Sequence record: MT446420.1
Direction: 5' to 3' (one strand)
Length of the DNA: 64,000 nucleotides
From: Escherichia virus TH54
Shown: piece after piece, positions 19,219 through 37,583 of the stretch
Layout: every line of letters begins with the position of its first letter
Numbering within the stretch: the first letter of the stretch is position 1
Translations under genes and position numbers: made by a program
Notes under the pieces: model-generated
The model's input: only the letters and a program-made list of their open reading frames with translations
The model's database searches: none
What the model was told of the DNA's origin: nothing

Positions 19219-19524
19219 TTAGATTTTGTTTTCCTGTACACCATAATAAAGCTCATCAGACACAATATCCAGGATGCGGCGAACATATTCATCATGGTAT
19301 TGACAGTCAAAATCAAATGCAACAGTAGTTTCCGCTTCACGAGTGAATTTAACTTGCACATTCAGGTGATTAACAACGTTAGTTAATTTATCAGTAAAGA
19401 ACTCTTTTGCTACCGCCTGTTGGACTTGCACTTTGAACTTGGTGTTACGAATCATATTTTCAGCAGATGCGAAATTACCAGTTTTATCAAAGTCAACAAG
19501 CGCCAGGTTGATGATGAATTTCAT
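19219..19524 (-). CDS. hypothetical protein
   Basis: 101-aa ORF downstream of promoter cassette. Confidence 0.45.
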   Translation of the reverse strand: MKFIINLALVDFDKTGNFASAENMIRNTKFKVQVQQAVAKEFFTDKLTNVVNHLNVQVKFTREAETTVAFDFDCQYHDEYVRRILDIVSDELYYGVQENKI

Positions 19525-19527
19525 TTT

Positions 19528-19600
19528 ATTCTCCAGTGTTTTATTTGGTAACTCAGTATGGAATCATTATGCCTTAAAGCAGGGGGCTTGTATACCCCCT
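19528..19600 (-). promoter_or_regulatory. early promoter cassette; -35 in loop of GGGGG/CCCCC hairpin; conserved leader
   Basis: minus strand GGGGGTATACAAGCCCCC hairpin, CATAAT -10, leader GATTCCATACTGAGTTACCAAATAAAACACTGGAG. Confidence 0.55.
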
Positions 19601-19606
19601 TTTTAA

Positions 19607-20038
19607 TTAAATTTCAAATTCTTTGCGGAAGTTGGAAGCATAAGACTGAACTGATGCTTTGTTGAATCCAAACTCACGCACAATCATATCAATAACAGCT
19701 CTACGAGCAGCACCATTAGACATATTGACAGTTTTGAACATATCATAGCATAAATCTTTGTTGCTCATGCCGGAGCGTTTAGGTGCCTTACGTTCAGCTT
19801 TAGGAGTAGGTTTAACTTCTGGTTTAACCTGTCCATCATTCAGACCTTTAAAAATTTTACCTGCCAGCGTTGCCAGTTTAGCAGCTTCGCCACGAGTGAT
19901 ACCAAATACTGCCGGGTTAAATGAAATACCTTCAGCTGTCAGACGTTTGAAGAACATACGTGCTGCGGATTGTGCTTCAGCTTCAGAAGAGTTGTTTAAT
20001 GCCAGTTTAATGTACTTAACCAGTTTTGAAGTTTTCAT
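19607..20038 (-). CDS. hypothetical protein, paralog of 20491-20916
   Basis: 143 aa; C-terminus ...ARRAVIDMIVREFGFNKASVQSYASNFRKEFEI matches paralog. Confidence 0.5.
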   Translation of the reverse strand: MKTSKLVKYIKLALNNSSEAEAQSAARMFFKRLTAEGISFNPAVFGITRGEAAKLATLAGKIFKGLNDGQVKPEVKPTPKAERKAPKRSGMSNKDLCYDMFKTVNMSNGAARRAVIDMIVREFGFNKASVQSYASNFRKEFEI

Positions 20039-20041
20039 TTT

Positions 20042-20110
20042 ATTATCCCGTTTGTTTATTTGTTAACTCAGTATGGAATCATTATGTCTTAGTTAAATTC
20101 CAAAGTACAC
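20042..20110 (-). promoter_or_regulatory. early promoter cassette (-35 GTGTAC, -10 CATAAT) with conserved leader
   Basis: same leader block as 33-100 and 19528-19600. Confidence 0.55.
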
Positions 20111-20111
20111 A

Positions 20112-20408
20112 TTAATTTTCAGAAGTTGGGAAATAAACTTCAAAGTCATACATGTTTACTACCGCAGACGCGATTGCCTGGTACTGCATACCTAAGAAAG
20201 TTTTCTTATTCTTGCGCCACAAGTTAACCATTTCTGTTTTGATGCATGCCAGGGAATAGTTGGATGCAGGATACTGTTTGATGATTGCAACAACTTCTTC
20301 AGAAGCAGTTTCACACAATTCATTCAGTTGAGCTTCAATTTTAGCAGAAATGATTGCTTTGTTTTCTTCTTGAGCTTGGGTAGCGTGCCATGCAGGTGCG
20401 TTAAACAT
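20112..20408 (-). CDS. hypothetical protein
   Basis: 98-aa ORF flanked by two promoter cassettes. Confidence 0.45.
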   Translation of the reverse strand: MFNAPAWHATQAQEENKAIISAKIEAQLNELCETASEEVVAIIKQYPASNYSLACIKTEMVNLWRKNKKTFLGMQYQAIASAVVNMYDFEVYFPTSEN

Positions 20409-20411
20409 TTT

Positions 20412-20478
20412 ATTCTCCAGTGTTTTATTTGTTAACTCAGTATGGGATAATTATACAATATCCCACCTGGAAGTAAAA
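20412..20478 (-). promoter_or_regulatory. early promoter cassette (-35 GTTTTAC, -10 TATAAT) with GGTGGGATA inverted repeat
   Basis: hybrid of the two cassette types: leader block plus GGGATA..TATCCC arms around TATAAT. Confidence 0.55.
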
Positions 20479-20490
20479 CACTTTTCTCAA

Positions 20491-20919: not shown

Positions 20920-20998
20920 ATTTCTCCAAAGTTTTGTTTGATTCAGTGTGTAACTCAGTATGGAATCATTATGCACCCGGTCAATTCGGATGTACACT
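20920..20998 (-). promoter_or_regulatory. early promoter cassette (-35 GTGTAC, -10 CATAAT) with conserved leader
   Basis: GTGTACAtccgaattgaccgggtgCATAAT plus leader block. Confidence 0.55.
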
Positions 20999-21039: not shown

Positions 21040-21078
21040 AGCCCCAACCTTTCGGGAGGGGCTATACCTTGTCGGGGT
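21040..21078 (-). terminator. intrinsic terminator downstream of ORF 21101-21484
   Basis: minus strand AGCCCCtcccgaaaggttGGGGCT followed by TTTTTTAT. Confidence 0.5.
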
Positions 21079-21100
21079 TCCACCTGCAAGGCAAGTGTTC

Positions 21101-21484
21101 TTATCCGCGAGCGAATGCCATTGCAGCGCGTTCGTTGGCACGGTCGGTGATGTTCAAGAATTTATCACGAGCGATTTCGATTGGAGCGCCAACCCAGTCA
21201 GCAGCACCATTACCCGGAGACTGTTTAGGACGGACCATATAAGTCGAAACTTTGGAACCGGCTAGTTTGGCACCTGGTGCCGCGGCATTTTTAACGTCTT
21301 TGGCTTTGATGCCAAATCCAGTTACGATACCCCAAGAAACGCCATTAACTGGTTTCTTGAACATAACACGGTCACCAATTGAAACACCAGCTTTTTCTGG
21401 AGCCACTAAAGAAAATTTACCAGCTTCAGTCAGTACGGATTCGGTGATGGTATTGCGATTTAAAAATTCTGCATATGTAAGCAT
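21101..21484 (-). CDS. hypothetical protein, possibly late-expressed
   Basis: 127-aa ORF; exact TATAAATA about 30 nt upstream on minus strand; terminator downstream. Confidence 0.45.
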   Translation of the reverse strand: MLTYAEFLNRNTITESVLTEAGKFSLVAPEKAGVSIGDRVMFKKPVNGVSWGIVTGFGIKAKDVKNAAAPGAKLAGSKVSTYMVRPKQSPGNGAADWVGAPIEIARDKFLNITDRANERAAMAFARG

Positions 21485-21515
21485 TTTGTTTTTCCATTAT
21501 TAGGGTTGTTGTTAA

Positions 21516-21523
21516 TATTTATA
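21516..21523 (-). promoter_or_regulatory. late promoter TATAAATA on minus strand
   Basis: exact T4 late-promoter octamer upstream of ORF 21101-21484. Confidence 0.4.
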
Positions 21524-21529
21524 TTCCAT

Positions 21530-21720
21530 AGTACCGGATGCACCATCCGCTCGGATTTCTCATACTACCGGACGCACCGTCCGCTCTGGAAAAAACTCCG
21601 TTAAAAGGATGCGCCGTTTCAGCTGTGATATAAGGGGACATCAACAAATCGTAAAGATTTATTAATGCCAGTCCTTAAACAGGGAACATCAGTCCGACGA
21701 CTTACCGGTAGCGACCCGGT
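21530..21720 (-). ncRNA. candidate small stable RNA region downstream of tRNA-Arg
   Basis: non-coding 190 nt with tandem hairpins CGGATGcacCATCCG / CGGACGcacCGTCCG showing compensatory changes, plus ACCGGgtcgctaCCGGT. Confidence 0.4.
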
Positions 21721-21723
21721 TTC

Positions 21724-21963
21724 TCATTCAATTGTAATAGCTAATTTGACTTTAACAACCTTATAATTGGAATCAAGGTCATTGAATTCCATAAAATTTG
21801 TTGCTAATCTGCGAGTCGGGAAACTTAGATATTTATTATGCTCAGGTGGAGCAGTTAATGCAAACCATGGGACTTGTTTATCATTTTCATCAAACTCATC
21901 AAAGCTATAAACCAGCTCGTTGTTGGTTATATCCATAACTGCATATGATTCACTAATAACCAT
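21724..21963 (-). CDS. hypothetical small protein immediately 3' of tRNA-Arg
   Basis: 79 aa from MVISESYAVMD; GAGGA SD a few nt after tRNA 3' end. Confidence 0.4.
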   Translation of the reverse strand: MVISESYAVMDITNNELVYSFDEFDENDKQVPWFALTAPPEHNKYLSFPTRRLATNFMEFNDLDSNYKVVKVKLAITIE

Positions 21964-21978
21964 AATATCCTCAGTAAT

Positions 21979-22055
21979 TGGTCGGGGTGGTGGGATTCTA
22001 ACCCACAACCTACGGTTTAGAAGACCGTTGCTCTATACAATTGAGCTACACCCCG
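21979..22055 (-). tRNA. tRNA-Arg (anticodon UCU)
   Basis: hand-folded cloverleaf: acceptor CGGGGTG/CACCCCG, D arm GCTC/GAGC, anticodon loop CTTCTAA, T arm GTGGG/CCCAC, 3' ACCA; ends +/- 2 nt. Confidence 0.8.
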
Positions 22056-22057
22056 GG

Positions 22058-22131
22058 TGGCCCCATCCGGACTTGAACCGGAAACCTGCCAGTTATGAGC
22101 CGGATGCTCTAACCAATTGAGCTACAGGGCC
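22058..22131 (-). tRNA. tRNA with CAU anticodon, probably tRNA-Ile (AUA-decoding) rather than Met
   Basis: acceptor GGCCCTG/TGGGGCC with two G-U pairs, anticodon loop CTCATAA, T arm TCCGG/CCGGA; no encoded CCA. Confidence 0.7.
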
Positions 22132-23633: not shown

Positions 23634-23888
23634 TTATTTTTTAGGGATACGATAGTAACGCATCTCAACATCTTTCTGCTTGTGCCACTTTTTGATAAGG
23701 TCTTCAGAACCTTTAATGGTAACGATGTCATAGCGACCATCATGCGATACTTCAGCACTTAACTGCATGAAGTTGTCTAATGAACGGCGGAATTCTTCAT
23801 TAGAAAAACTGCCACGCGGGGAACCAACATAAGCAAACTCAACTTTTGCATCTGCGGCTTCGTTAATAAATTCTTGATAAGTTTTCAT
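23634..23888 (-). CDS. internal-protein-like, CTS-bearing
   Basis: 84 aa starting MKTYQEFINE. Confidence 0.6.
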   Translation of the reverse strand: MKTYQEFINEAADAKVEFAYVGSPRGSFSNEEFRRSLDNFMQLSAEVSHDGRYDIVTIKGSEDLIKKWHKQKDVEMRYYRIPKK

Positions 23889-23889
23889 T

Positions 23890-23945
23890 AGTAGCTCCAG
23901 TAGTTGATGGGATAATTATACTGCAACTATCCCATCGCGTACATT
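23890..23945 (-). promoter_or_regulatory. early promoter (-35 ATGTAC, -10 TATAAT inside GGGATAG inverted repeat)
   Basis: same architecture as 23580-23633. Confidence 0.5.
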
Positions 23946-24243
23946 ACATTTTTGAACCACGAATTACACCATAAGCGGCGAAGTCGTCAGAAATATCTTT
24001 AGGAGAGTTCTTACCAGTTTCAATGAAGGCAATGCTTGACTTCTGACTAAAAGAGGTAATTTTGTTATAGTTGGAGTCAAGGAAGGTATAACCATTTTTA
24101 CGCAGCTGGTCAAAGTCTTCAGCGTCGCCTTTACCTTTGAAGTCAACCCATTTGTAGGTGTTTTTCTTCTGAAGGCCCAGAGGCCAGGTTTTTGCTTCTG
24201 CCAGGTAATTGTTTTCTACCAAAAATTCATGAAAAGTTTGCAT
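23944..24243 (-). CDS. internal-protein-like, divergent CTS
   Basis: 99 aa starting MQTFHEFLVE. Confidence 0.5.
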   Translation of the reverse strand: MQTFHEFLVENNYLAEAKTWPLGLQKKNTYKWVDFKGKGDAEDFDQLRKNGYTFLDSNYNKITSFSQKSSIAFIETGKNSPKDISDDFAAYGVIRGSKM

Positions 24244-24251
24244 TTGAAATC

Positions 24252-24524
24252 CTATTTTAGATAAATTGCATATTTTTTATAACCAGCCGTCTCATGACGG
24301 AGACCCTTGTCATTGGCAAAACGCTCAATGTTATTAATTTGGTTCTGGTCAAGTTCTGAAATGTCAAACGCGAAAAAGTTGCGTTTGTTGCCAATTGTTA
24401 TATGGTCAGTTAAGTCAATGCTATACAGGTGATTGATATTGTCAATCATAGCTTTGACTGCTTTACTAATTTTTACTTCTTCATTCAGTTGGGACTCGTT
24501 GAAAAATTCATTGAAAGTTTTCAT
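24252..24524 (-). CDS. internal-protein-like, divergent CTS
   Basis: 90 aa starting MKTFNEFFNE. Confidence 0.5.
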   Translation of the reverse strand: MKTFNEFFNESQLNEEVKISKAVKAMIDNINHLYSIDLTDHITIGNKRNFFAFDISELDQNQINNIERFANDKGLRHETAGYKKYAIYLK

Positions 24525-24532
24525 AAGAAACC

Positions 24533-24865
24533 TTATTTATAAAGTTTTGCCAGTTCTTTACGTCCGCGAGCAGACATAATAAATTGTTCATCGCCAATTT
24601 TAAAATAAGCCATACCGCCGTCAACAGCGATACCAATTTCTTTAGTACCTTCTTTGCCTTTCCACTTGCCACCAGATTTCAGGACAGCTTCAACTGCAGC
24701 TTTGGAATATTTGGACGTTTGAAAACGTTCATTACCAATCTGAAAGAAAACACCATCTGCATTTTTGGTTAAACCAAATTTCAGAGAGCCTTCACTATCA
24801 TCAATTGATTTGGTCTCATTGATGGCGGATTCGGCTAAAAACTCGTTGTAAGTCTTGATGTTCAT
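24533..24865 (-). CDS. internal-protein-like (ipI locus position)
   Basis: 110 aa from MNIKTYNEFLAE; immediately upstream of 57B as ipI is in T4. Confidence 0.55.
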   Translation of the reverse strand: MNIKTYNEFLAESAINETKSIDDSEGSLKFGLTKNADGVFFQIGNERFQTSKYSKAAVEAVLKSGGKWKGKEGTKEIGIAVDGGMAYFKIGDEQFIMSARGRKELAKLYK

Positions 24866-24867
24866 TT

Positions 24868-24925
24868 TAACTCCGTTTGTTCGTTGGTGTAGGAACATAA
24901 TACTGCACCTACACTCATTTGTACA

Positions 24926-37575: not shown

Positions 37576-37583
37576 TATAAATA
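37576..37583 (+). promoter_or_regulatory. late promoter TATAAATA for gene 9
   Basis: exact octamer about 28 nt upstream of ATG. Confidence 0.6.

Follow-up and report, generated by a model that had tools for sequence, protein, structure and literature searches.

The non-coding gap studied here, located between a 79-aa and a 127-aa open reading frame (ORF), is composed of two unrelated features on the minus strand, namely a homologue of the small stable RNA rnaD of phage T4 and a small three-helix element representing a well-supported candidate for a conserved RNA motif. The element is absent from Rfam and from the annotations examined and is apparently undescribed. As deduced from the comparison of related phages, its two-unit layout is kept across two genera, the Gaprivervirus-type phages and Kanagawavirus.

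The phage from which the DNA originates is T4-like and belongs to the Gaprivervirus group, with vB_YenM_P8, P896, TH55, UPEC07, DK-13, MN01, and VR20 being the closest records (97–99% identity). The whole stretch of DNA analyzed, 64 kb in length, is referred to as the window, and the features of the locus are compiled in Table 1. All genes around the gap are encoded on the minus strand. The initial annotation had described the hairpins on the plus strand, and the hairpin sequences it listed are indeed present; the orientation had to be revised, because genes, tRNAs, and the G·U evidence described below all place the relevant strand as minus. The same annotation had regarded the region as devoid of a credible ORF, which was confirmed, as the gap contains mechanical ORFs of 28–42 aa only. 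A coding reading of the hairpins was rejected, since the sole open frame carries non-synonymous changes between isolates and is interrupted by a stop codon in the Enterobacter phages. Searching with the Rfam covariance models (Infernal, E ≤ 10), a check that had been proposed for this region, yielded no match within 21485-21727; in the scanned stretch, significant Rfam matches were obtained for tRNA-Met and tRNA-Arg and for a tRNA-like sequence antisense to tRNA-Met, and for nothing else.

Table 1. Features of the stable-RNA transcription unit and of the cassette inserted into it (positions are those of the window).
Feature	Position	Strand	Evidence and remarks
tRNA-Met	22056-22131	(-)	ARAGORN; Rfam tRNA matches (both tRNAs) 62-74 bits; upstream part of the stable-RNA transcription unit
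tRNA-Arg	21979-22055	(-)	ARAGORN; Rfam tRNA matches (both tRNAs) 62-74 bits; upstream part of the stable-RNA transcription unit
79-aa ORF (phrog_33509, function unknown)	21724-21963	(-)	Between tRNA-Arg and rnaD; CDS in the VR20, MN01, and DK-13 annotation
T4 rnaD homologue (species 2 small stable RNA), 120 nt	21608-21727	(-)	106/120 identities to NC_000866 71171-71053
rnaD 5' stem-loop, ACCGG-gtcgcta-CCGGT	21704-21720	(-)	Identical in T4 and all aligned relatives
Inserted cassette, 510 bp	21100-21609	(-)	Linker, three-helix element, late promoter, leader, and 127-aa ORF; TH57 homology break
Linker (C)CUUUUAACGGAGUUUUUUCCAGAG, about 21-24 nt	21584-21607	(-)	AU-rich, contains GGAG; between rnaD 3' end and P1
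Helix P1 (5' hairpin), CGGACG-GUG-CGUCCG	21569-21583	(-)	6 pairs, 100% paired in 6 sequence types; 3 pairs double-changed
Helix P2, 5' strand, GUAGUAU	21562-21568	(-)	Directly 3' of P1; pairs with 21528-21534
Bulge/spacer, 12 nt, GAGAAAUCCGAG	21550-21561	(-)	Bears the conserved YCCnGAG 5' flank of P3
Helix P3 (second hairpin), CGGAUG-GUG-CAUCCG	21535-21549	(-)	6 pairs, 100% paired; 2 pairs double-changed
Helix P2, 3' strand, GUACUAU	21528-21534	(-)	Directly 3' of P3, 4 nt upstream of the late promoter
Late promoter TATAAATA of the 127-aa ORF	21516-21523	(-)	Invariant in 11/11 aligned isolates
127-aa ORFan	21101-21484	(-)	N-terminus MLTYAEFLNRNTITES; one protein cluster
Ancestral post-rnaC hairpin and intrinsic terminator (…GCCCCUCCCGAAAGGUUGGGGCUUUUUU)	21042-21095	(-)	Terminator scan; homologous to the post-rnaC sequence in T4, TH57, and SP18

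The rnaD RNA is an orphan RNA that has been known for 50 years and is cut out of the tRNA-operon transcript. Its homologue in the window aligned over positions 21728-21610(-) with T4 positions 71172-71055 (annotated as 71171-71053) at 88% identity over approximately 118 nt (E = 3e-38). Homology spans the full length of the T4 RNA, and the homologue likewise lies on the same strand, downstream of tRNA-Arg within the tRNA cluster. According to its fold, the 5' hairpin and the closing stem are conserved and the same as in T4 rnaD, while the central hairpin varies. In T4, tRNA-Arg directly abuts rnaD, whereas here the two are separated by the 79-aa ORF, whose TGA stop codon overlaps the rnaD 5' end. 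The RNA occurs in 734 phage records, lacks an annotation in these genomes, and is overlaid in some records by CDS calls that are probably spurious. The annotation is thereby corrected in that a known orphan RNA fills about half of the gap. Both rnaC and rnaD are known in T4 as RNAs of unknown function that are abundant late in infection (PMC3014915, PMC9697503, PMC12685909); northern blotting confirmed T4 RNAC, while RNAD was classed as a late RNA (PMC9697503).

Following rnaD, the genomes of T4, TH57, SP18, VR7, and SholemSchwarzbard feature a 6-nt spacer, rnaC, a hairpin, and an intrinsic terminator. The window is homologous to TH57 down to 21610 and again from 21099 onwards, the break at 21610/21609 lying 26 nt 5' of helix P1, and a cassette precisely replaces the 6-nt spacer and rnaC in 15 Gaprivervirus-type records. 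The site occupied by rnaC in TH57, SP18, and VR7 thus harbors the cassette in the window, and comparison of T4 rnaC, including its tRNA-like 3' domain GGTTCGAATCC, with positions 21400-22000 gave no alignment. The ancestral terminator at 21057-21042 is now located 3' of the 127-aa ORF, downstream of the cassette. Because rnaC is cleanly swappable for a protein-coding cassette, it is dispensable. The assumption that the gap represents the locus of the T4 small stable RNAs was correct with regard to the rnaD homologue, while the single structured element described in the initial annotation has to be divided into this RNA and the tandem hairpins as separate features. The tandem hairpins, whose position the initial annotation had compared with that of the T4 small stable RNAs, are not related to rnaD or rnaC and form the 5' edge of the cassette that replaced the latter. 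Likewise, the further hairpin noted nearby exists, but it is the rnaD 5' stem-loop and not part of the tandem-hairpin element.

The promoter sequence TATAAATA in front of the 127-aa ORF corresponds to the T4 late promoter consensus. The ORF itself was found in 15 records with at least 99% identity, and the hairpin segment occurs in exactly the same 15 phage records. Searches against Pfam and PHROG assigned no family to the ORF, its homologues being confined to one cluster. Its N-terminus MLTYAEFLNRNTITES is similar to the capsid-targeting sequence found in internal proteins of the T4 type, and internal-protein genes in the window start with MKTYQEFINE, MKTFNEFFNE, and similar sequences. Apart from the capsid-targeting sequence, the T-even internal proteins are diverse and have no conserved feature in common (PMC3012670). 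The product of the 127-aa ORF is considered a putative internal protein.

The three-helix element covers positions 21528-21583(-), corresponding to approximately 68–70 nt with its flanks, and consists of P1 followed by a 7-bp helix P2 that includes a 12-nt bulge and is capped by P3. It is built from two tandem 26-nt copies (21527-21552 and 21561-21586) being 88% identical with a period of 34, as the initial annotation had largely recognized, and a 21-nt core of these units occurs twice in the 64-kb window versus zero occurrences expected. Each unit forms a 6-bp stem with a 3-nt loop, the plus-strand sequences being CGGATGcacCATCCG (21535-21549) and CGGACGcacCGTCCG (21569-21583). The two stems differ by T/A versus C/G, a compensatory change, as had been claimed, and the P2 pairing explains the third (G/C) difference between the repeat units. 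Some folds contained a fourth helix that encloses the entire element (UUCC/GGAA; UAUC/GAUA in Kanagawavirus); since it has no consistent alignment and competes with a pairing to the Shine–Dalgarno (SD) region, it is regarded as tentative. The folding energy is no better than expected by chance (z-score −0.85; 36 of 200 shuffled sequences fold as well), and the case for structure therefore rests on the comparison with relatives.

Relatives outside the Gaprivervirus group were reached via a weak blastn match leading to Kosakonia phage 305 and from there to the Enterobacter phages CIP9, IME523, MY742, and Q7622, all of them belonging to Kanagawavirus. At the equivalent locus, these phages have a pair of tandem units designed in the same way. 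The units are directly followed by the late-type promoter GATAAATA and an internal-protein-like gene starting with MLNFNEF…TEAG; beyond this start, the protein bears no relation to the 127-aa ORF. The locus is situated downstream of a tRNA/rnaC-like cluster and a terminator-like hairpin, and an rnaC-like RNA is retained alongside the element. The leader, the SD sequence, and the ATG are conserved together with the element in both clades. Searching for loci related to the Kosakonia protein returned three loci only.

On the sense strand, the units follow the pattern GAG-C-NNNNG-GUG-CNNNN-G-G. Their stems are GGACG/CGUCC and GGAUG/CAUCC in the window, GGGCG/CGCCC in VR20-type isolates, and GGGUG/CAUCC in TH44 and TH40, the G·U pair of the latter being possible on the minus strand only. 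In Kanagawavirus, AAGCG/CGCUU and GGACG/CGUCC were found, and the basal C-G pair is replaced by U-A in the Enterobacter phages. The strands of P2, a helix of 7–8 bp, read GUAGUAU/GUACUAU in the window and GUAUUCG(U)/(G)CGAAUAU in Kanagawavirus, and the three differences per strand between the clades are all complementary at the exact partner positions. In total, six distinct sequences from two deep lineages were available for the covariation analysis; all 112 of the 112 cells representing the 20 pairs were paired, and seven pairs showed compensatory double changes. When partners were moved by one to three columns as slid controls, 26–46% of the cells were paired. P1, P2, and P3 were independently recovered by RNAalifold. 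Selection on the pairing, which the initial annotation had proposed from the two units of the window, is thus supported, with the relatives supplying many more compensatory changes and all pairs being kept in the six sequence types.

Substitutions within the clades are all compensatory, wobble-compatible on the minus strand, or located in the bulge, and the changes seen (A-U to G-C, C-G to U-A, A-U to G·U, and U·G to C-G) never break a pair. The swap from A-U to G-C affects P1 among isolates, and in P3 of TH44 and TH40, A-U is changed to G·U, which only the minus strand tolerates. In TH44, the P2 5' strand GUAGUAU is changed to GUAGUAC, converting the U·G pair with the first G of the 3' strand into C-G, and a C to A change of the same phage falls into the unpaired bulge (21550-21561). 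The GUG loops and the YCCnGAG 5' flanks are invariant, the loops and flanks being more conserved than the stems.

The distribution of the element is narrow. A covariance model built from the alignment detected no further copy in the 64-kb window or in 16 related loci, pattern and regex searches of the window returned this locus only, and scans of IMG/VR and metagenomes retrieved duplicates of the VR20 type and chance matches in GC-rich genes only. Phages EcS1, CHI14, and Vettismorki have a single degenerate unit that does not fold, with the gene still being present. An origin from host REP/BIME or other dispersed repeats was rejected, since there are two units per phage and no blastn match in 5,426 E. 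coli genomes.

From its position only, the element may tentatively be interpreted as a transcript-boundary RNA structure forming part of a portable 5' module with a late promoter and a capsid-targeting sequence, a reading to which we attach limited confidence. Such a module would comprise the structured element, TATAAATA, the leader, and the first ~25 codons encoding the capsid-targeting-like N-terminus, and T4-like phages appear to attach it to differing late 'cargo' genes. Here, the module together with the 127-aa ORFan replaced rnaC inside the stable-RNA transcription unit, upstream of its terminator. The fold is not contained in late transcripts, which begin downstream of it; hence, it can act only in read-through RNA or in single-stranded DNA. 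According to the boundary interpretation, the three-helix fold would form in read-through RNA from the tRNA–rnaD unit and act as a boundary or insulator on the arriving transcripts, either by pausing or terminating the polymerase without a U-tract or by setting a processing and stability boundary. As an outcome, rnaD could mature, and the late gene would be expressed mainly from its own promoter.

The comparison with other phages is consistent with this interpretation. JS98, JS09, PG7, Marfa, SholemSchwarzbard, COW86c, and 92A1, in which the gene at the locus is homologous or similarly N-terminated, feature a hairpin-plus-T-run terminator directly before the late promoter and no hairpin element. 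Since other genera have a terminator abutting TATAAATA at this place, the element occupies the 'boundary' position of a late-gene module. Terminators abutting a late promoter were also found elsewhere in the window, e.g., at 37576 and 44104, and the element is the sole structure between rnaD and the 127-aa ORF. Several observations, however, argue against the boundary reading or at least against its simplest form. The hairpins are not followed by a U-tract, and the consensus scan does not call a terminator. A rho-independent terminator was rejected, because no T-run follows the hairpins and the scan called none between rnaD and the 127-aa ORF, the sole minus-strand terminator there being that at 21057-21042. 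Furthermore, the Kanagawavirus element sits downstream of a separate terminator-like hairpin, which speaks against a simple substitute for a terminator. The Kanagawavirus P2 3' strand is also predicted to engage in an alternative pairing beside the SD sequence (GAAUAUGA/UCAUAUUC) with a probability of ~0.99 in long RNAs, which hints at a switch rather than a static barrier. The invariance of the GUG loops and YCCnGAG flanks points to some factor recognizing them in a sequence-specific manner, which a generic barrier would not need. The predicted stability, being no higher than that of shuffled sequences, the small sample of six distinct sequences from two deep lineages, and the loss of the fold in EcS1, CHI14, and Vettismorki also count against this reading.

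Alternative explanations were weighed against the boundary interpretation. One of them is temporal translational control of the type known for T4 genes e, soc, and 49, or a two-state switch, in which the upstream sequence silences the ribosome-binding site of the late gene in early or middle read-through RNA, the late RNA is translated, and the hairpins act as a scaffold or competitor. Documented examples of this mechanism in T4 are the genes e, soc, 49, and I-TevI (PMC3014915). Shortly before P1, the sequence GUUUUUUCCA (21587-21596) has its complement in the SD region UGGAAAAAC (about 21488-21496) of the 127-aa ORF; the resulting helix is present in the minimum free energy (MFE) fold of the TH44 type, and the late leader alone is nearly unstructured (−3.3 kcal/mol). 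In addition, the 8-bp alternative partner UCAUAUUC of the Kanagawavirus P2 3' strand, 2 nt from the SD sequence, is conserved in seven phages. We nevertheless consider this explanation unlikely: the predicted pairing probability of the SD region in the window clade is 0.44 in the read-through RNA versus 0.42 in the late RNA, with similar values in five other isolates, and the MFE fold of the window itself lacks the helix. Moreover, this helix shows no covariation and represents A/U-tract pairing in an AT-rich genome, and the alternative helix of Kanagawavirus has no counterpart in the window clade. Another alternative is a signal for mobility or recombination at the DNA level, with the hairpins being recognized or cut by a structure-specific enzyme or a recombination protein in single-stranded or supercoiled DNA and promoting the exchange of cassettes. 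A stem-loop-binding recombination factor was raised by the authors describing the PeSL cassettes (PMC2839356). The element coincides exactly with the 5' breakpoint of the replacement that distinguishes near-identical phages and travels with different cargo genes in two genera, and the 127-aa ORF is 99–100% identical in 15 records next to a sharply different rnaD center, suggesting recent spread or mosaicism. This scenario is equally improbable in our view, as P2 pairs across ~27 nt, which is unlikely in duplex DNA, and the 3' breakpoint has no matching element; with one copy per genome, a partner site for intragenomic exchange is also lacking. The G·U pairs confined to the sense strand fit RNA better, even though G·T pairs are possible in single-stranded DNA.

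Quite unlikely is the assumption that the element is a small stable RNA, or part of one, processed from the tRNA–rnaD transcript, either as a newcomer in the rnaC slot or as a decoy binding proteins or RNA via its GUG loops and YCCnGAG flanks. Its compact, tRNA-like size (about 70–90 nt), its location in the slot of rnaC right after rnaD within a unit yielding stable RNAs only, and the stronger conservation of loops and flanks compared to the stems would all be expected for such an RNA, but it shows no similarity to rnaC or any Rfam family, no tRNA-like features for recruitment of RNase P were seen, and Kanagawavirus has an rnaC-like RNA as well as the element. Furthermore, the element is in every case joined to a late promoter and to a gene of the capsid-targeting type, pointing to a role in cis. 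Very unlikely, lastly, is the absence of any function, meaning a neutral relic left by a tandem duplication, in which the palindromic units would pair because of the way they are built and the apparent covariation would arise from few related sequences. The small sample of six distinct sequences from two lineages, a folding energy that does not exceed that of shuffled sequences, the rarity of the element in IMG/VR and metagenomes, and its reduction to one non-folding unit in three related phages that keep the gene are compatible with such a relic, which is, however, hard to reconcile with pairing in 112 of 112 cells. Neither the seven double-changed pairs, compared to no more than 46% of paired cells in the slid controls, nor the P2 differences between the clades falling at exact partner positions (three per strand) are explained in this way; independent within-clade SNPs never break a pair, and the two-unit layout is retained across two genera.

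The boundary interpretation can be related to the PeSL and PmSL cassettes described by Arbiol et al. 2010 and Comeau et al. 2014, in which a stem-loop just upstream of a promoter is followed by an SD sequence and a start codon, and which are located at replacement boundaries (PMC2839356, PMC4122927). Reporter assays showed that transcription is terminated by these stem-loops, and the idea was linked to shuffling at the internal-protein locus (PMC2839356, PMC4122927). Similarly, the stem-loops, promoter, SD sequence, and ATG form one conserved unit here, with P1–P3 ending 4 nt before TATAAATA; the element lies at a replacement boundary between close relatives (the TH57 break), and the conserved 5' unit is joined to unrelated ORFs. 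Differences concern the promoter, which is the late type TATAAATA (GATAAATA in Kanagawavirus) instead of a sigma70-like early promoter (PeSL) or a Mot-box middle promoter (PmSL), with the scan calling no sigma70-like site at the promoter position, and the copy number, as one copy per genome was found instead of dozens dispersed in hyperplastic regions. Moreover, a specific three-helix fold with GUG loops and covariation takes the place of a generic GC stem, there is no U-tract, and conservation of the unit reaches into the coding region, where it includes the capsid-targeting codons. In its organization, the element may accordingly be viewed as a late-promoter counterpart of PeSL/PmSL that departs from the PeSL definition in promoter class and copy number.

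Two further systems are comparable in part. Intrinsic terminators abutting T4 late promoters likewise have a hairpin ending few nt before TATAAATA, between an upstream unit and a late gene, but consist of one GC-rich hairpin with a UUCG or GAAA loop, whereas the element comprises two 6-bp triloop hairpins with an enclosing helix and no T-run. With the occlusion described for T4 genes e, soc, 49, and I-TevI, the element shares a sequence upstream of the late promoter that is contained in the early read-through RNA only and a 9-nt complement to the SD region; it differs in that the covarying helices exclude the SD sequence and the AUG, and the predicted accessibility of the SD sequence is unchanged.

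Taken further, the element could be an undescribed cis-acting RNA heading a portable late-expression and encapsidation module, with which T4-like phages would plug injected-protein cargo into foreign transcription units. A factor of phage or host origin would recognize the RNA by its invariant GUG loops and YCCnGAG flanks, and the RNA would insulate or switch read-through versus late expression. This extended proposal is possible, albeit rather speculative. For the phages considered here, the results indicate that rnaD is kept among them, but that its central hairpin is swappable. The restricted distribution of the three-helix element over two genera limits its wider impact; if it is functional, the PeSL idea of linkers combining a promoter with a structure would be broadened to cover late genes as well as the shuffling of internal proteins of the anti-defence type.

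In GenBank, the region containing rnaD, the homologue of the T4 species 2 small stable RNA, and the adjoining three-helix hairpin element is unannotated in vB_YenM_P8 and UPEC01 and is overlain by coding sequences for hypothetical proteins, which are probably spurious gene calls. Unannotated RNAs were also found in Kosakonia phage 305, where the interval between the tRNAs and the hairpin element (L003 2590-3030, minus strand) contains an rnaC-like RNA, which ends 3' in …CCTGGTTCGAATCCAGGCGTTCCGTA, together with another segment that resembles a tRNA and includes a T-arm (GTGGGTTCGAGCCCCAT). An 8-bp inverted repeat (GAATATGA … TCATATT(C/T)) flanks the late-type promoter GATAAATA on both sides in Kanagawavirus, the genus of this phage, as well as in Winklervirus and EcS1; only 2 nt separate its end from the SD. 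Its predicted pairing probability in the read-through RNA is ~0.99, and this pairing would compete with helix P2, which encloses the inner hairpin of the element.

Four copies of an intergenic repeat of ~75 nt (core TAACTCAGTATGGAATCATTAT on the plus strand) were identified in the window, each located upstream of one of successive small minus-strand ORFs, two of which (143 aa and 168 aa) share the C-terminal motif …QSYASNFRK. These repeats look like promoter cassettes of the PeSL type (stem-loop plus promoter) beside shuffled genes. At the internal-protein locus, all four genes begin with capsid-targeting-like N-termini (MKTYQEFINE, MQTFHEFLVE, MKTFNEFFNE, and M..KTYNEFLAE), and for at least one of them the late promoter overlaps the preceding stop codon (24541). 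The hairpin element is absent from all four genes of this locus.

Features of the window and of related phage loci
Feature	Position	Strand	Remark
Hypothetical-protein CDS over rnaD/hairpin region	L002 3107-3265	+	GenBank
Hypothetical-protein CDS over rnaD/hairpin region	L009 1576-1728	-	GenBank
~75-nt repeat copies	19522-19595, 20037-20110, 20406-20479, 20924-20997	-	read on this strand
8-bp inverted repeat around GATAAATA	L003 2466-2510		equivalent positions in L027-L032
rnaD central hairpin, version 1			T4/window type
rnaD central hairpin, version 2			TH41/TH44/UPEC01/ECML-359 type
rnaD central hairpin, version 3			SP18 type
Internal-protein locus	23634-24898	-	tandem small genes
79-aa ORF, phrog_33509	21724-21963	-	between tRNA-Arg and rnaD
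Sigma70-like match, TTGTTA-16-TACAAT	21731-21758	-	9/12; within end of 79-aa ORF

In T4, tRNA-Arg and rnaD abut, whereas in the window they are separated by the 79-aa ORF, the stop codon of which overlaps the first bases of rnaD (21724-21727). The start predicted from the sigma70-like match lies approximately at the rnaD 5' end; the match could represent rnaD's own promoter or a chance match. Since VR7 and SholemSchwarzbard carry different ORFs at this junction, the 5' flank of rnaD is an insertion hotspot too. Within rnaD, for which a convergent SNP was described in a 2025 evolution study (PMC12685909), the central hairpin (21630-21690, minus strand) differs between near-identical phages (L005, L006, L009, L011, and L014), with at least three versions that are unrelated in sequence. 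Because neither the 5' hairpin nor the closing stem varies between these versions, rnaD looks like a fixed scaffold with an exchangeable arm.
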